From Escherichia coli (GTDB lineage: Bacteria; Pseudomonadota; Gammaproteobacteria; Enterobacterales; Enterobacteriaceae), in NCBI RefSeq assembly GCF_044324785.1, contig NZ_CP172127.1: a DNA stretch of 64,000 nucleotides; one strand, written 5' to 3'. Numbering within the stretch: the first letter of the stretch is position 1; each line of letters starts with the position of its first letter. This document shows positions 1 through 7,359 of this stretch, piece after piece. The translations under genes were made by a program, and so were the position numbers. The notes beneath the pieces are model-generated. The model did not search any database. It was not told the DNA's origin and was given only the letters and a program-made list of their open reading frames with translations.

Positions 1-2301
1 ATGGCCGTTAAAGCCTCCGGGCGTTTTGTCCCTCCGTCAGCATTTGCCGCAGGCACCGGTAAGGCGTTTACCGGTGCTTATGCATGGAACGCGCCACGCG
101 AGGCTGTCGGGCGCGAAAGACCCCTTACACGTGACGAGATGCGTCAGGTGCAAGGTGTTTTATCCACGATTAACCGCCTGCCTTACTTTTTGCGCTCGCT
201 GTTTACTTCACGCTATGACTACATCCGGCGCAATAAAAGCCCGGTGCACGGGTTTTATTTCCTCACATCCACTTTTCAGCGTCGTTTATGGCCGCGCATT
301 GAGCGTGTGAATCAGCGCCATGAAATGAACACCGACGCGTCGTTGCTGTTTCTGGCAGAGCGTGACCACTATGCGCGCCTGCCGGGAATGAATGACAAGG
401 AGCTGAAAAAGTTTGCTGCCCGTATCTCATCGCAGCTTTTCATGATGTATGAGGAACTCTGCGATGCCTGGGTGGATGCGCATGGCGAAAAAGAATCGCT
501 GTTTACGGATGAGGCGCAGGCACATCTGTATGGTCATGTTGCTGGCGCTGCACGTGCTTTCAATATTTCCCCGCTTTACTGGAAAAAATACCGTAAAGGG
601 CAGATGACCACGAGGCAGGCATATTCTGCCATTGCCCGCCTGTTTAACGATGAGTGGTGGACTCATCAGCTTAAAGGCCAGCGTATGCGCTGGCATGAGG
701 CGTTACTGATTGCTGTCGGGGAGGTCAATAAAGACCGTTCTCCTTATGCCAGTAAACATGCCATTCGTGATGTGCGTGCGCGCCGCCAGGCAAATCTGGA
801 ATTTCTTAAATCGTGTGACCTTGAAAACAAGGAAACCGGCGAGCGCATCGACCTTATCAGTAAGGTGATGGGCAGTATTTCTAATCCAGAAATTCGCCGG
901 ATGGAGCTGATGAACACCATCGCCGGTATTGAGCGTTACGCCGCCGCAGAGGGTGATGTAGGGATGTTTATCACGCTGACCGCGCCGTCAAAGTATCACC
1001 CGACACGTCAGGTCAGAAAAGGCGAAAGTAAAACCGTCCAGCTAAATCACGGCTGGAACGATGAGGCATTTAATCCAAAGGATGCGCAGCGTTATCTCTG
1101 CCGTATCTGGAGCCTGATGCGCACGGCATTCAAGGATAATGATTTACAGGCCTACGGTTTGCGTGTTGTTGAACCACACCACGACGGAACGCCGCACTGG
1201 CATATGATGCTTTTTTGTAATCCACGCCAGCGTAACCAGATTATTGAAATCATGCGTCGCTACGCGCTCAAAGAGGATGGCGACGAAAGAGGAGCTGCGC
1301 GAAACCGTTTTCAGGCAAAACACCTTAACCGGGGCGGTGCTGCGGGATATATCGCGAAATACATCTCAAAAAACATCGACGGCTATGCACTGGATGGTCA
1401 GCTCGATAATGATACCGGTAGACCGCTGAAAGACACAGCTGCGGCTGTTACCGCATGGGCGTCAACGTGGCGCATTCCGCAATTTAAAACGGTTGGTCTG
1501 CCGACAATGGGGGCTTACCGTGAACTACGCAAATTGCCTCGCGGCGTCAGCATTGCTGATGAGTTTGACGAGCGCGTCGAGGCTGCACGCGCCGCTGCAG
1601 ACAGTGGTGATTTTGCGTTGTATATCAGCGCGCAGGGCGGGGCAAATGTCCCGCGCGATTGCCAGACTGTCAGGGTCGCCCGTAGCCCGTCGGATGACGT
1701 TAACGAGTACGAGGAAGAAGTCGAGAGAGTGGTCGGCATTTACGCGCCGCATCTCGGCGCGCGTCATATTCATATCACCAGAACGACGGACTGGCGCATT
1801 GTTCCGAAAGTGCCGGTCGTTGAGCCTTTGACTTTAAAAAGCGGCATCGCCGCGCCTCGGAGTCCTGTCAATAACTGTGGAAAGCTCACCGGTGGTGATA
1901 CTTCGTTACCGGCTCCCACACCTTCTGAGCACGCCGCAGCAGTGCTTAATCTGGTTGATGACGGTGTTATTGAATGGAATGAACCGGAGGTCGTGAGGGC
2001 GCTCAGGGGCGCATTAAAACACGGCCTGAGAAGACCAAACCGTCAGCAAAGAAACGGAAGCCCGTTAAAACCGCATGAAATAGCGCCATCGGCCAGACTG
2101 ACCCGGTCGGAACGAATGCAAATTACCCGTATCCGCGTTGACCTTGCTCAGAACGGTATCAGGCCACAGCGATGGGAGCTTGAGGCGCTGGCGCGTGGTG
2201 CGATGGTGATATTCGATGATAAAAAATATAAGTATGTGGCAAGTAATGTCGATGAGTGGCAGGGTTTTAGTAATGAGTACTTCAGCAAAGAGCTCAAGTA
2301 A
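1..2301 (+). CDS. A: P2-type replication initiator, rolling-circle nicking endonuclease gpA (766 aa)
   Basis: ORF starts with ATG at position 1. HUH-type motif PHWHMML and tyrosine pair GYIAKYISK are visible in the translation. Colinear with the downstream P2-like gene set. Promoter lies outside the window. Confidence 0.9.
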   Translation: MAVKASGRFVPPSAFAAGTGKAFTGAYAWNAPREAVGRERPLTRDEMRQVQGVLSTINRLPYFLRSLFTSRYDYIRRNKSPVHGFYFLTSTFQRRLWPRIERVNQRHEMNTDASLLFLAERDHYARLPGMNDKELKKFAARISSQLFMMYEELCDAWVDAHGEKESLFTDEAQAHLYGHVAGAARAFNISPLYWKKYRKGQMTTRQAYSAIARLFNDEWWTHQLKGQRMRWHEALLIAVGEVNKDRSPYASKHAIRDVRARRQANLEFLKSCDLENKETGERIDLISKVMGSISNPEIRRMELMNTIAGIERYAAAEGDVGMFITLTAPSKYHPTRQVRKGESKTVQLNHGWNDEAFNPKDAQRYLCRIWSLMRTAFKDNDLQAYGLRVVEPHHDGTPHWHMMLFCNPRQRNQIIEIMRRYALKEDGDERGAARNRFQAKHLNRGGAAGYIAKYISKNIDGYALDGQLDNDTGRPLKDTAAAVTAWASTWRIPQFKTVGLPTMGAYRELRKLPRGVSIADEFDERVEAARAAADSGDFALYISAQGGANVPRDCQTVRVARSPSDDVNEYEEEVERVVGIYAPHLGARHIHITRTTDWRIVPKVPVVEPLTLKSGIAAPRSPVNNCGKLTGGDTSLPAPTPSEHAAAVLNLVDDGVIEWNEPEVVRALRGALKHGLRRPNRQQRNGSPLKPHEIAPSARLTRSERMQITRIRVDLAQNGIRPQRWELEALARGAMVIFDDKKYKYVASNVDEWQGFSNEYFSKELK

Positions 2302-2351: not shown

Positions 2352-3503
2352 ATGAATGTGGTTGATTTATACTCAGGGGTAGGTGGTTTAAGCTTGGGAG
2401 CATCACGGGCAGGCTTTAACTTGGTTGGTGCCGTTGAGTTGGATAAGCATGCAATATTTTCCCATGCTCTTAATTTCCCAAATTCAACACATTTACATAA
2501 AGATGTTAGCAAACTTTCTGCTCATGATATTCTAACAGCTTGTAATGTTAGTAATATTGATTGTGTCATCGGTGGACCACCTTGTCAGGGATTTAGTACA
2601 ATTGGTAAAGGGATGGCTAATGACGTCAGAAATGAATTGTATATTCATTTTTTTAGGTTGGTGAGCGAGTTATCACCTGTTTGTTTCTTGGCAGAGAATG
2701 TTCCTGGGATAATGAATGAAAAATATGATGCAGTTAGAGAAAAAGCATTCTCATTAGTAAAAGACCGATATGTAATATTGAGCCCAATAAAAGTGAATGC
2801 GTCTAATTATGGAGCTCCTACAACTAGAACTAGGATTTTTTTTATCGGATTCAAAAAGGAATTAGCTAATTGTTTAAAAGAATCTGATTTCTTTCCTGTG
2901 CAAGATATTGAGCAAACCTTAGTTAAAGATGCTTTATACGGTATTCCTCGTGTTATAAGAAAAGAATGGCAGCAAGAGGAACAAGGCTGGCGTGAAGTTA
3001 AGATGGATAGGCAAGGATATTTTTTTGATAGACTTTGGAGTAATGTTCCGAATAATGTTGGTGATCCGGAATCTTTAGAAAAATTAAAAAAAGGGTTGGT
3101 CTCCGGTTTCTTGGGAACAATACATACAGATGAGGTTATTAATAGATATAAAAAACTCTCTTTTGGCGAAACTGATAAAATTTCACGATCTCAGAGGTTA
3201 AATCCAAATGGTTTCTGTCCGACGCTAAGGGCTGGAACTGGCAGCGATAAGGGCAGTTATCAAGCAGTTAGGCCGATCCATCCAACGCAGGCTAGAGTTA
3301 TTACTCCACGTGAGGCTGCTCGATTACAAGGTTTTCCTGATTGGTTTAGGTTTCACCCTACTAAGTGGCATAGTTTCAGGCAAATCGGTAATAGCGTTAG
3401 CCCATTAGTAGCTGAAGCTATGCTATTACCGTTATATAAATTATGTCAGTTTTCTAAAGAAGAACTTTCGAATACCACGGAATTACTTTGTAATACTCAA
3501 TAA
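2352..3503 (+). CDS. DNA (cytosine-5)-methyltransferase (383 aa)
   Basis: Canonical C5-MTase motifs in order: motif I DLYSGVGG, motif IV GGPPCQGFS, motif VI FLAENVPG, motif VIII-like TTRTRIFFIG, motif X IGNSVSP. AT-rich relative to flanking phage genes. Starts 51 bp after the gpA stop. Confidence 0.85.
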   Translation: MNVVDLYSGVGGLSLGASRAGFNLVGAVELDKHAIFSHALNFPNSTHLHKDVSKLSAHDILTACNVSNIDCVIGGPPCQGFSTIGKGMANDVRNELYIHFFRLVSELSPVCFLAENVPGIMNEKYDAVREKAFSLVKDRYVILSPIKVNASNYGAPTTRTRIFFIGFKKELANCLKESDFFPVQDIEQTLVKDALYGIPRVIRKEWQQEEQGWREVKMDRQGYFFDRLWSNVPNNVGDPESLEKLKKGLVSGFLGTIHTDEVINRYKKLSFGETDKISRSQRLNPNGFCPTLRAGTGSDKGSYQAVRPIHPTQARVITPREAARLQGFPDWFRFHPTKWHSFRQIGNSVSPLVAEAMLLPLYKLCQFSKEELSNTTELLCNTQ

Positions 3504-3915
3504 AGTTTTTAAGGTTACTATTAGCCTCGGCTTCATCATCTCCAATGTAAAAGCCGAGGTCGTTGGTAATTTCTTCATGGTCTTTTGTAGGAAGTCGTTC
3601 CTCAATAAAGATTCTCTCACGTAAAGACATCGTGGGAACACTAATGTTTTTGACGGTGCCCCAGTCTCCAGAATAAAAGGGCCAAAAATTAATTCGAGAA
3701 TTTTGAAGGAAGCTATCTAATTGCATATCACTGTTTTCGAGAACAATGGCAGTAAAGGTAAGCATTTGCTGACCATCTTTGTAAATAAAATTACATAAAG
3801 GATGGATCATTATATCTGGTCTACCTGTTAATCCAATACTTATGGCACGTTGAGCTGCTTTTATTAAAAGGTGTGGGTACCTTTTAAAAGTGACATCATC
3901 AACAGTTAGATTCAC
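3454..3915 (-). CDS. Hypothetical protein (153 aa), third gene of GHKL-ATPase operon
   Basis: GTG start overlaps the stop of the upstream 177-aa ORF by 4 nt (GTGA). No recognisable motif. 3' end overlaps the MTase 3' end convergently by 50 bp. Confidence 0.55.
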   Translation of the reverse strand: MNLTVDDVTFKRYPHLLIKAAQRAISIGLTGRPDIMIHPLCNFIYKDGQQMLTFTAIVLENSDMQLDSFLQNSRINFWPFYSGDWGTVKNISVPTMSLRERIFIEERLPTKDHEEITNDLGFYIGDDEAEANSNLKNFIEYYKVIPWYSKVLL

Positions 3916-4445
3916 TGGGCAATAATCTTGAGTAAGTAAAGATTGTATTTTTTTAATCGAAAACGCCTAGGGTCTCTTTCTTGAAAATCTCTTCCTAAAG
4001 TTTCAGGAGTTGCATTTAAAGTTATTTTAAATATATCTTTTGGCTTTAACTTACTTACCAATTGAGCAATGTCATTCATTTGCTCATATATTTGGCTTGG
4101 TATGGCATAGTCAAGCCAAATTAGAGAAGGTGCAGCGAAGTCGCTTTGAGTAATAAATTCACTGCTACTTAAAGGTTCTTCTCCTAAATCAATACATGAT
4201 ATAGGTTTGTTAAATTTTTGTCGTTTATGAACGTTAGCATCTACCTCTAGAGAGATCATGTTATTGATTTTTAAAGCATTATGCAGTTGTTTGAAGTCTT
4301 CTAGAAAAGGGCCACCAAACCCGATATAAACATAATCGGATATGTTTACATAGTTGTTGAGTTTTCTGAGCAACTCAATGAATAGATTTCTTTCGACAGC
4401 TTTGTGTTGTCGAAGATGATAAGGAATACTTCCCCCAGTACTCAT
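3912..4445 (-). CDS. Hypothetical protein (177 aa), second gene of GHKL-ATPase operon
   Basis: ATG overlaps the stop of the 488-aa ORF by 4 nt (ATGA). Weak glycine-rich stretch YVYIGFGGPF could be a nucleotide- or SAM-binding loop, but no confident family assignment. Confidence 0.55.
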   Translation of the reverse strand: MSTGGSIPYHLRQHKAVERNLFIELLRKLNNYVNISDYVYIGFGGPFLEDFKQLHNALKINNMISLEVDANVHKRQKFNKPISCIDLGEEPLSSSEFITQSDFAAPSLIWLDYAIPSQIYEQMNDIAQLVSKLKPKDIFKITLNATPETLGRDFQERDPRRFRLKKYNLYLLKIIAQ

Positions 4446-5908
4446 TTTTTTGCCCTCTCTAAAAAATCTTCAAAGCAATAATTACCAATTTCTGTCGGAG
4501 GAACAGAATCATCATCGAAAATGAAAGTGGCAACAGTTTTTATCTCACTCAATCTTCTACTAAATTTTATTTGCTTTAAAGGGTCTGTTTCTTTAGGTAT
4601 TGGCAATGTTGGTTTGAAACTATTCCCACCAATGGATCTATGCACCCGAGACCATTTATCTTCAGGTACTATGCTATCTAGTTTGTCGTTTGTAAGAGGA
4701 ATTGTTTTAGATGTGGAACTAAACATTTGCTGGCGTTCTGGAGAGTTACTTTTCCATCTGTTAGTAAAATCTGTAAATATTTTCAAGCCTTCACGCATGA
4801 AATCTTTAGTAGCCAAATAGATATCAGAATTACCATCAATGCCTCTCTTGGTAGTAGTAATAGGTAATTTTTCAGCTTCATTAGATGTAAAAATAGCTAC
4901 GCCTGCAATTCCAACAAATTGTGTGTGATATTGTGGAACTCCTGCTTCACCCCATCCGGTAAGACGTGTCTTGTCCGCATGAACAACAACACGATCATTG
5001 CAGATAATAGTCCATCCGGCTTTCTCGGAAGTGTTACGTCCAGTAAGGAATGAATTTTCCTCATCTTCTGTCACAAAATCTCTATAGAATCCAACTGCGA
5101 TCTTTATTGAAACTCCATTAGTTTCACCTCTGTAAAAATAAGGCGTGATACCACCTTTTTTCGCTGACACAAGAGCTTCGGTATCGATAATTAATGATGT
5201 CAGATTTGGCTTGACTTCTATATCATTAATATAGACCTTGAAACCTTTATTAAGAATTAGGCTATAATGGTTTGAAACAGAATTGATTAATTTTTGTTGA
5301 AAATCACGATCAACTTTGAAATGGTTTTTTACATCGTCTCTGAGATCGTTAACTATAATTTTTACGCCCGTTGTTTTTAAATCGACATTACCACGTTCGA
5401 GATCTAGTTTCCAGTTTTTATCATTGGATAACCATTCTGGAGAAATTGTAACTTTAAATTCCTCGTCTTTTGTTTTACTTAATACTTGCGATGAAGTGCC
5501 CAACTTAAAAATAGCTCGCTTCATACCTATCCCATAAACACCAATGGTTGGGATATTATCTATGTCTCTTTCATTTGGTCTTCCCATTCGGAAAGCATAG
5601 CTTGTTGCTAAGCTTCCCGAAATTCCGCCACAATTATCTTCAATTGTAAAACCATCTTCATTAAAATTTATTTTTGAGTAAAAACCGTGGTATTTATTTT
5701 CTTCGTTTATTTCTTCATTCGATGATGAAATGGAACGAAGAGCGCCATCAAGACAGTTGTCTAATAAGTCAAGAATAGCATCTTGGAGTTCGATATCCCT
5801 GGTTAACATTTCTACAAAGAAACGTTTTGCAGGAAAAGCTTCGATGATATCGTTTGCCATAGTTATTTTAGTTCCATCTGTGTGATTACTTATAGATATG
5901 TTTACCAT
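4442..5908 (-). CDS. GHKL-superfamily (MutL/GyrB/MORC-like Bergerat fold) ATPase (488 aa)
   Basis: N-box AILDLLDNCLDGA, G1 box IEDNCGGISG and G2 box IGVYGIGMKRA occur in the expected order and spacing in the N-terminal ~130 residues. C-terminal ~350 residues unassigned. First gene of a 3-gene coupled operon. Confidence 0.7.
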   Translation of the reverse strand: MVNISISNHTDGTKITMANDIIEAFPAKRFFVEMLTRDIELQDAILDLLDNCLDGALRSISSSNEEINEENKYHGFYSKINFNEDGFTIEDNCGGISGSLATSYAFRMGRPNERDIDNIPTIGVYGIGMKRAIFKLGTSSQVLSKTKDEEFKVTISPEWLSNDKNWKLDLERGNVDLKTTGVKIIVNDLRDDVKNHFKVDRDFQQKLINSVSNHYSLILNKGFKVYINDIEVKPNLTSLIIDTEALVSAKKGGITPYFYRGETNGVSIKIAVGFYRDFVTEDEENSFLTGRNTSEKAGWTIICNDRVVVHADKTRLTGWGEAGVPQYHTQFVGIAGVAIFTSNEAEKLPITTTKRGIDGNSDIYLATKDFMREGLKIFTDFTNRWKSNSPERQQMFSSTSKTIPLTNDKLDSIVPEDKWSRVHRSIGGNSFKPTLPIPKETDPLKQIKFSRRLSEIKTVATFIFDDDSVPPTEIGNYCFEDFLERAKK

Positions 5909-6136
5909 AAAACAAGGTACAGATCATCGATGTTTAGCACAACATCTTGAGAGTTTCTTGGTAGCATGAGGGGGATTATGCCGCTTATTTTATGATTTTC
6001 AGCTTTGTGCTAATGCATCTAACTGGTGCATGAGTTTGCATTCGCTTTTATTTCAAAGCATGTGGGGGCGTGCTAGTGTTGGTAGAGCTCTGATTTCCTG
6101 ATGCAACTGCATTAAAACCGCCCCATGAAGCGGGCG

Positions 6137-6155
6137 GGCGAGGCGGGGAAAGCAC
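6137..6155. other. cos: P2-type cos site (19-nt cohesive end GGCGAGGCGGGGAAAGCAC)
   Basis: Exact 19-mer present in the GC-rich spacer between the cargo operon and the portal gene Q, where cos lies in P2. The P2 cohesive-end sequence is recalled from memory. Confidence 0.7.
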
Positions 6156-6297
6156 TGCGCGCTGGCGGTGGTGCTGATTTTATTTTTTCAGCGTCTCAGC
6201 GCGTCGTGACGGCGCTTAGTCTGCCCGTTGAGGCGTTGGTGTGTCTGCGGGGTGTTTTGTGCGGTGGTGAGCGTGTGAGGGCGTGATGACGGGGTGT

Positions 6298-6320
6298 AAA
6301 AAAGCCGCCCGCAGGCGGCG
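6298..6320 (-). terminator. Rho-independent terminator downstream of Q
   Basis: Minus-strand hairpin CGCCGCC-TGC-GGGCGGC followed by a T6 run, immediately after the Q stop codon. Confidence 0.65.
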
Positions 6321-6324
6321 ATGT

Positions 6325-7359
6325 TCAGCCGTTGTCAGTGTCCAGTGAGTAGTTTTTAAATCGGATGACCTCCTGACCGAGCCAGCCGTTTATCTCGCGG
6401 ATCCTGTCCTGTAACGGGATAAGCTCATTGCGGACAAAGACCTTTGCCACTTTCTCAATATCACCCAGCGACCCGACGTTCTCCGGCTTGCCGCCCATCA
6501 ACTGAAAGGGGATGCGGTGCGCGTCCAGCAGGTCTGCGGCGCTGGCTTTTTTGATATTAAAAAAATCGTCTTTCGTCGCCACTTCACTGAGCGGGATAAT
6601 TTTAATGCCGTCGGCTTTTCCCTGCGGGGCGTAGAGAAACAGATTTTTAAAGTTGTTGCGGCCTTTCGACTTCACCATGTTTTCGCGGAGCATTTCGATA
6701 TCGTTGCGATCCTGCACGGCGTCGGTGACGTACATGATGTATCCGGCATGTGCGCCGTTTTCGTAATACTTGCGGCGGAACAGCGTGGCCGACTCATTCA
6801 GCCAGGCAGAGTTAAGGGCGCTGAGATATTCCGGCAGGCCGTACAGCTCCTGATTGATATCCGGCTCCAGCAGGTGAAATACGGAGCCGGGCGCGAAGGC
6901 TGTCGGTTCGTTGAAGGACGGCACCCACCAGTAAACATCCTCTTCCACCCCACGGCGGGTATATTTTGCCGGTGAGGTTTCCAGTCTGATGACCTTACCG
7001 GTGGTGCTGTAACGCTTTTCCAGAAACGCATTGCCGAACACCAGAAAATCCAGCACAAAGCGGCTGAAATCCTGCTGGGAAAGCCACGGATGCGGGATAA
7101 ATGTCGAGGCCAGAATATTGCGTTTGACGTAAATCGGTGAGCTGTGATGCACGGCAGCACGCAGACTTTTTGCCAGCCCGGTAAAGCTGACCGGCGGCTC
7201 ATACCATCTGCCGTTACTGATGCATTCGACGTAATCCAGAATGTCACGGCGGTCGAGTACCGGCACCGGCTCGCCAAAGGTGAATGCCTCCATTTTCGGG
7301 GCGCTGGCAGTCATTTTTTTTGCCGCAGGTTGCGGTGTTTTCCCTTTTTTCTTGCTCAT
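6325..7359 (-). CDS. Q: Portal protein gpQ (344 aa)
   Basis: Size, position next to cos and terminase, and sequence are typical of the P2 portal protein. Confidence 0.9.
   Translation of the reverse strand: MSKKKGKTPQPAAKKMTASAPKMEAFTFGEPVPVLDRRDILDYVECISNGRWYEPPVSFTGLAKSLRAAVHHSSPIYVKRNILASTFIPHPWLSQQDFSRFVLDFLVFGNAFLEKRYSTTGKVIRLETSPAKYTRRGVEEDVYWWVPSFNEPTAFAPGSVFHLLEPDINQELYGLPEYLSALNSAWLNESATLFRRKYYENGAHAGYIMYVTDAVQDRNDIEMLRENMVKSKGRNNFKNLFLYAPQGKADGIKIIPLSEVATKDDFFNIKKASAADLLDAHRIPFQLMGGKPENVGSLGDIEKVAKVFVRNELIPLQDRIREINGWLGQEVIRFKNYSLDTDNG

Follow-up and report, generated by a model that had tools for sequence, protein, structure and literature searches.

ATPases that combine a GHKL domain with an S5-fold transducer domain were placed in restriction-modification operons on computational grounds in 2008, when Iyer, Abhiman and Aravind predicted MORC and paraMORC proteins of this GHKL+S5 architecture in association with Dcm, Vsr and HNH genes and defined a MORC signature, GhXhhpXXRhl, within the S5 domain (PMC2292703). 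The GHKL ATPase of VcSduA (Shedu type I-D, paraMORC3) is needed for phage defence and is thought to gate the effector (PMC12137116), and mzaABCDE, a multi-gene anti-phage system in which MzaB is likewise a GHKL ATPase, is called validated in a later paper (PMC9523054). The interval between the gpA and gpQ genes of P2-like phages is a hotspot of anti-phage systems (Rousset et al. 2022, PMC9122126). Here we describe a locus of this kind in a stretch of 64,000 nucleotides from Escherichia coli (the window; assembly GCF_044324785.1, contig NZ_CP172127.1), where a gene for a GHKL ATPase (the GHKL protein) stands between gpA and gpQ together with the gene of a PF20553 (Methyltransf_35) protein, which has a class-I S-adenosylmethionine (SAM)-methyltransferase fold, and that of a Dcm-type C5 DNA cytosine methyltransferase. 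We conclude with moderate confidence that the GHKL protein serves as motor or switch, gated by ATP, in a restriction-like defence module that Dcm protects and mobile elements carry. The main interest lies in this three-gene module rather than in the ATPase signature.

Motifs and fold of the GHKL protein

The gene lies in an uninterrupted open reading frame (ORF) that encodes 488 aa from its first ATG, the length given in a first-pass annotation of this DNA. The true start is probably M17 (ATG at 5860), because in two further E. coli genomes with the identical DNA RefSeq annotates a 472-aa "ATP-binding protein" (WP_021517196.1), and homologues from other genera also start there. Residues are therefore numbered here after the 472-aa form, to which 16 is added to obtain the 488-aa numbering.

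The three strings from which a complete Bergerat-fold signature had been read, the N-box (AILDLLDNCLDGA, 44-56 in the 488-aa numbering), the G1 box (IEDNCGGISG, 89-98) and the G2 box (IGVYGIGMKRA, 122-132), are all present and in canonical order in the translation of 4442-5908, with TTTKRGID at 351-358. Alignment by hhalign with the E. coli MutL LN40 sequence (identical to that of PDB 1b63) pairs N35 with MutL N33, D75 with D58, the G2 glycines with each other and G165 with the glycine of motif IV, and the G2 box aligns with "GLYGNGFK" of MORC3. Conservation was counted across 121 family sequences, in which D34, N35, D75, C77, G79, G93, G107, G110, G112, K114, R115, W143, G282, N288, W303, G320, P333 and K338 are invariant. 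N35 (N51 in the 488-aa numbering), the motif I Asn of the GHKL superfamily, is the predicted Mg2+ ligand. In motif IV, G165 is kept in 118 of the sequences; the residue that follows it is Thr in 106 of them and Val in the window's GHKL protein.

The signature is complete as regards N35 and the G1 and G2 boxes, and Pfam supports it (HATPase_c_3, aa 40-169 in the 488-aa numbering, E=2e-9, with nothing else significant), but not as regards the catalytic Glu of the N-box. Asp31 (D47 in the 488-aa numbering) aligns by hhalign with MutL Glu29, the general base (E42 in GyrB), and this position is Asp in 120 of the 121 sequences and Glu in one, which leaves the carboxylate one methylene shorter. The GyrB E42D mutant retains reduced ATPase activity, and by this analogy the GHKL protein is expected to bind ATP and to hydrolyse it slowly.

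The Lys of TTTKRG, put forward at first pass as a candidate ATP sensor, corresponds to the invariant K338 (K354 in the 488-aa numbering), and in the predicted secondary structure it falls in a loop that precedes a long helix (346-368) by about 8 residues. From this placement we infer that K338 occupies the position of MutL K307 and GyrB K337, since the hhalign alignment with MutL LN40 stops short of the S5 domain.

The predicted structure of the GHKL protein (predicted local distance difference test, pLDDT, 94.2) contains the Bergerat alpha/beta sandwich followed by an S5-fold transducer with a conserved basic residue, as in the GHKL+S5 branch formed by MutL, type II topoisomerases, Hsp90 and MORC. 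In the structure ranking, MORC3 came first with a score of 23.7 (287 residues aligned, 20% identity), followed by SMCHD1 (20.1), MORC2 (20.0), TRAP1 (17.6), MutL (16.3) and ParE (16.1), with histidine kinases at 7 or below and isolated S5-fold proteins (uS9, GHMP kinases) at 5-6. Foldseek, in which Hsp90 and TRAP1 ranked at the top, supports the superfamily (E~1e-14) without separating MORC from Hsp90 or topoisomerases. A search of the PDB with the single sequence gave no match, and the 121-sequence profile found only marginal matches to MORC3 and MORC4, in the G1-G2 region (E=0.04).

Two thirds of the protein had been left unassigned, a description that now applies only to a C-terminal extension of about 125 aa, to which neither Pfam nor fold comparison gives an assignment; the rest of that region is the S5-fold transducer. 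The nuclease or DNA-binding effector proposed for the C-terminus finds no support in the extension, which has no Pfam or fold match and no Asp, Glu or His conserved at >=90% among the 121 relatives. Pfam also gave no match to a Toprim domain after the transducer, about 125 aa beyond which the protein ends. Relatives of the GHKL protein number more than 4,400 in a word-indexed search and 696 at E<=1e-30 among 50%-identity representatives in an exhaustive search, most of them of 455-500 aa and aligned from end to end.

A three-gene module on mobile elements

The neighbourhood of the GHKL gene was surveyed in 80 loci from 80 species, whose phyla include Proteobacteria, Cyanobacteria, Firmicutes, Planctomycetes, Chloroflexi, Bacteroidota, Acidobacteria and Latescibacterota. 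A PF20553 gene follows immediately downstream on the same strand in 75 of these loci, at a distance of -7 to +13 nucleotides (nt), and in the window the stop codon of the GHKL gene overlaps the start codon of the partner as ATGA, an arrangement for translational coupling in which the GHKL gene is indeed the first of the operon, as had been noticed at first pass. A C5 methyltransferase gene lies within 3.5 kb in 67 of the 80 loci, as is expected of the cognate methyltransferase of a restriction-modification system; that of the window matches TIGR00675 (E=3e-49) and the PADLOC model MTase_II (E=8e-95). Clustering of every ORF of 70 aa or more from the 80 loci yielded no recurrent families other than GHKL, PF20553 and Dcm. 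Pairwise distances of the GHKL protein correlate with those of the partner (r=0.83) and of Dcm (r=0.47), both values lying above all 999 permutations. A domain-wise mirror-tree aimed at the partner-binding region was uninformative, with r of 0.72-0.75 for all three domains of the GHKL protein. Vsr is encoded in 28 of the 80 loci, and a second, longer GHKL gene in 10.

The dcm gene usually either converges on the operon right after the partner gene or lies directly upstream in the same direction. In the window the dcm and partner genes are convergent and share 50 nt at their 3' ends (3454-3503), an overlap that could allow transcriptional interference between the modification and the "restriction" genes. 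Across the survey, a convergent dcm that starts 940-1090 nt past the GHKL stop, at or overlapping the end of the partner gene, was seen in about 28 of the 80 loci.

The partner gene is split in the window. Its 177-aa and 153-aa ORFs match a single 328-position family, phrog_19983, at positions 1-168 and 175-328, and when aligned with E. coli strains EC77 and EC05 the window is one base short in a homopolymer. That the two ORFs are halves of one gene had been overlooked at first pass, as had the minus-strand orientation and the replacement of Glu by Asp. The intact product, WP_021517197.1 ("O-methyltransferase"), gives a full-length match to Pfam PF20553 (E=1.7e-84) and is present on more than 400 contigs, whereas truncated products are found on 4 and 3 contigs (the longest of 5.48 Mb). 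Because these exact truncated products recur under several E. coli accession numbers, the frameshift is unlikely to be a read error alone and probably represents a true minority allele. Since it disrupts the partner gene, the module is probably inactive in the window genome, with Dcm left as an orphan methylase.

Conserved features of the partner comprise an N-terminal motif (Y-H-L-R-x-x-K-A-x-x-R), a G-x-G-G following beta-1, E67 closing beta-2 and D112, within W-L-D-Y, closing beta-4, a set that is consistent with a working SAM site. The partner has no NCBIfam match, and a search of its profile against the PDB gave nothing meaningful.

The association with mobile elements extends beyond the P2 hotspot, where the trio was catalogued by Rousset et al. 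2022 (PMC9122126), whose P2-hotspot section on cloned and tested systems does not mention it. The trio also occurs among conjugation genes in Salmonella and Enterobacter contigs and in the filamentous (Inoviridae) Pseudomonas phage PfAC20 (locus L091; PP058144.1, 280-3711). In PfAC20 all three genes point in one direction, in the order GHKL gene, divergent PF20553 gene (29% identity, hhalign probability 99.96) and cytosine methyltransferase gene, and another gene for a DNA cytosine methyltransferase follows at some distance. At the DNA level the window allele was found in only 2 of 5,426 complete E. coli genomes, and a DNA search of GenBank phages gave matches limited to 224-254 bp of cos-proximal DNA.

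Table 1. Features of the locus and their positions in the window (residues in the 472-aa numbering)
Feature	Position	Strand	Remarks
P2 gpA replication endonuclease	1..2301	+	Borders the hotspot on the left; annotated by RefSeq in the identical DNA
C5 DNA cytosine methyltransferase	2352..3503	+	Dcm type, 383 aa; PPCQGFS, ENVPG and GNSV motifs
Partner gene, PF20553 (Methyltransf_35)	3454..4445	-	Class-I SAM-methyltransferase fold; 330 aa when intact
Partner half, 153-aa ORF	3454-3915	-	
Partner half, 177-aa ORF	3912-4445	-	
Homopolymer frameshift site	3948-3954	-	A7 on coding strand (T7 on plus strand); A8 (T8 on plus strand) in EC77 and EC05
GHKL protein, longest ORF	4442..5908	-	488 aa + stop
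GHKL protein, probable coding sequence	4442-5860	-	472 aa + stop; WP_021517196.1 "ATP-binding protein"
C-terminal extension, aa 346-472	4445..4825	-	Mostly helical, most divergent part, isoelectric point 8.7
S5-fold transducer domain, aa 191-345	4826..5290	-	
Candidate gamma-phosphate sensor, Lys338	4847..4849	-	In L-P-x-T-T-T-K-R-G; invariant 121/121
S5 strand, G282-W-T-I-I-C-N288-D-R290-V-V	4985..5017	-	Possible fit to MORC signature GhXhhpXXRhl; pattern read and conservation
Bergerat (GHKL) ATP-binding domain, aa 1-190	5291..5860	-	Includes conserved N-terminal segment PAKRFFVEMLTRDIEL
G2 box, G107-V-Y-G110-I-G112-M-K114-R115	5516..5542	-	GxxGxG; G107, G110, G112, K114 and R115 invariant
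G1 box, D75-N-C77-G-G79	5624..5638	-	DxGxG; D75, C77 and G79 invariant 121/121
N-box, D31-L-L-D34-N35-C-L-D38-G39	5744..5770	-	hhalign with MutL LN40 and column counts
cos-proximal DNA common to P2-like phages	6071-6324		
P2 gpQ portal protein	6325..7359	-	Right border of the hotspot

Further observations concern the DNA upstream of the operon. Relative to EC05, the window carries an 8-bp insertion (TCAGCGTC) at 6188-6195 and four substitutions (6252-6286) in the non-coding cos-proximal DNA, where EC77 is the same as the window. On the minus strand, two GC-rich hairpins that resemble terminators and carry T tails are located at 6304-6321 and 6118-6137, downstream of gpQ and before the GHKL operon, and a weak sigma-70-like site lies at 6002-5975; the promoter scan returned 15 sites, compared with 12.6 +/- 3.7 in shuffles, and thus no enrichment.

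Variants of the module were seen in several loci. In locus L007 (3135-9858) and loci L008-L010 (9470-14170), the trio stands with a second HATPase_c_3 protein of 546-588 aa, Vsr and an HNH_2 gene. The second GHKL protein carries Hypoth_Ymh in L007, and in L008-L010 a ScoMcrA-type DNA-binding domain is found with the HNH_2 gene; in the second GHKL protein, too, the general-base residue is Asp (DLLDN or DLIDN). In cyanobacterial loci L034, L047, L063 and L075, a GHKL gene without a PF20553 partner comes after a syntenic housekeeping block (cinA, aroQ, miaE-like, GNAT) and is followed by dcm (L034, L047), a convergent gene for a UvrD/PcrA-like helicase (L063) or a convergent ORF of about 800 aa (L075). 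Some neighbours in cyanobacterial loci, among the 13 loci without dcm, match models of other defence proteins (PD-T4-6, mad3 and PDC-M60C). Other HATPase_c_3 arrangements in hotspots are listed in the supplementary tables of PMC9122126, including a "hypothetical + HATPase_c_3" entry in a file that we took to be that of P4.

Proposed mechanism and competing explanations

In the mechanism that we favour, the GHKL protein would bind ATP in the Bergerat pocket and form a dimer by way of its N-terminal domains, the gamma-phosphate would be sensed by Lys338 in the S5 transducer, and an ATP-gated clamp or switch would form on DNA, as in MutL, MORC and type II topoisomerases. Genomic context shows it to act together with an obligate, co-evolving PF20553 partner and, in most genomes, with a C5 methyltransferase, which would mark self DNA, the mark allowing self to be told from non-self. 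Dcm could double as the sequence-recognition subunit, like Mod in Type III systems, and a separate recognition domain would therefore not be needed. Because no recognisable nuclease is present, action on the invader might come from methyltransferase-type chemistry of the partner, from entrapment or compaction of DNA by the clamp, or from a recruited host nuclease.

Several observations weigh against a restriction-like module. No nuclease fold was revealed by Pfam or by structure comparison in either the GHKL protein or the partner, and no nuclease other than Vsr (35%) recurs as a neighbour in the 80 loci, so that no restriction endonuclease of a classical restriction-modification system is recognisable, though a cryptic or recruited nuclease may take part. 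The best structural matches of the partner are RNA methyltransferases, not DNA ones, and with Asp in place of the catalytic Glu the turnover of ATP may be slow or absent. In 13 of the 80 loci, mostly cyanobacterial, there is no C5 methyltransferase within 8 kb, and therefore the GHKL-partner pair is not necessarily lethal when no methylase is linked to it. Neither the GHKL protein nor either half of the partner had a match in PADLOC, and our literature searches found no experimental paper on the trio or its family.

The 13 loci in which the pair stands without a nearby dcm, together with the conserved SAM-type motifs of the partner (G-x-G-G, E67, D112), would fit an abortive-infection or toxin module, in which the GHKL protein would sense infection, the partner would disable tRNA or rRNA as an RNA methyltransferase, and Dcm would be a frequent passenger or an unrelated regulator; we consider this unlikely, as linkage to a C5 methyltransferase in 84% of the loci, often with overlapping ends, and to Vsr in 35% argues that DNA cytosine methylation is part of the system.

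The presence of Dcm and Vsr allows a non-immune explanation as well, which we regard as quite unlikely: the ATPase could be a MutL-like helper that stimulates very-short-patch repair of the T:G mismatches left by deamination of 5-methylcytosine. E. coli MutL stimulates Vsr, as such a helper would. MORC-type ATPases have in fact been likened to MutL in mismatch and very-short-patch repair (Iyer et al. 2008, PMC2292703), but Vsr is missing from 65% of the loci and from the window cargo, and the GHKL protein lacks the C-terminal dimerisation and endonuclease domain of MutL (DQHA(X)2E(X)4E), for which neither a Pfam match nor a DQHA string was found. A repair helper would also leave unexplained both the methyltransferase-fold partner, with its presence in 75 of the 80 loci and its correlated distances, and the location in a phage defence hotspot.

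That the protein is a signalling kinase of the histidine-kinase type or a chaperone like Hsp90, and not a clamp directed at DNA, is highly improbable in spite of the Foldseek ranks and of the Pfam clan that HATPase_c_3 shares with histidine kinases. Fold ranking and domain content led us to reject both readings: Pfam finds no DHp/HisKA domain and no Hsp90 family match, an S5 transducer with an invariant Lys is a feature of the MutL/topoisomerase/Hsp90/MORC branch and not of kinases, and the genomic context is one of DNA methylation.

The Dcm-protected, restriction-like module also admits a bolder version, which we put forward as a doubtful speculation: the trio might be a nuclease-free, MORC-based epigenetic immune system in which Dcm would mark self DNA, a dimer of the MORC-like protein would clamp unmarked DNA, and this dimer and the methyltransferase-fold partner would silence the invader or mark it chemically rather than cut it, a prokaryotic forerunner of the methylation-linked transposon silencing by eukaryotic MORC proteins.

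Our literature searches found no description of the fixed pairing with PF20553, of the missing recognisable nuclease or of the family-wide Asp at the general-base position, no paper that mentions PF20553 or Methyltransf_35, and no mention of GHKL in a 2026 preprint on P2/P4 hotspots. Very few GHKL/MORC ATPases in restriction-modification have been tested, and none with this architecture. The family is large, spans many phyla, travels on phages and on integrated elements that also bear conjugation genes, and lies outside the coverage of PADLOC. A self-marking methylase combined with an ATP-driven clamp, with no visible nuclease, could therefore reveal a non-classical way of discriminating or disabling foreign DNA, and the module could shed light on how eukaryotic MORC silencing evolved. 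E. coli EC77 carries the intact allele, with the trio at NZ_CP196708.1 2413064-2417087, and thereby offers a construct that can be tested directly.

Comparison with known systems

The GHKL protein shares its GHKL plus S5 transducer architecture with MORC3 (5ix1), MORC2 (5of9) and SMCHD1 (6mw7). These eukaryotic proteins are also alike in that their sequence can be aligned from G1 to G2 and in the functional link to DNA cytosine methylation, and the S5 motif of the GHKL protein may correspond to the MORC signature. On the other hand, the GHKL protein lacks the CW zinc finger, the coiled coil and the hinge domain, carries Asp for the catalytic Glu, its own C-terminal extension and a methyltransferase-fold partner, and is only marginally similar at the profile level.

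With the N-terminal ATPase of MutL (LN40, 1b63 / 7p8v), the N-box, G1, G2 and motif IV can be paired, and the Lys of the transducer loop would be analogous to K307, whereas the GHKL protein differs in having Asp31 at the position of Glu29 and in showing no linkage to MutS or MutH. The sole NCBIfam match of the GHKL protein is to MzaB, at 14.5 bits against a cutoff of 850, which places it outside that family, and the neighbours expected of that system are absent; the likeness to mzaABCDE thus lies in a GHKL ATPase within a multi-gene system.

Prokaryotic MORC and paraMORC1-5 (PMC2292703) resemble the present family in their GHKL+S5 architecture, in a sporadic distribution with lateral mobility and in gene neighbourhoods where Dcm, Vsr and HNH occur and a further GHKL gene is sometimes seen. 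The GHKL protein could fall within the description of paraMORC1 or within the MORC family proper. The partners described in that study are superfamily 2 (SF2) helicases and nucleases, and we found no mention there of a PF20553 partner. VcSduA differs in its fused DUF4263 nuclease of the PD-(D/E)xK type, a domain of which Pfam and PADLOC find no trace in the GHKL protein; unlike in VcSduA, the effector of the GHKL protein, if any, would be a separate protein with a methyltransferase fold.

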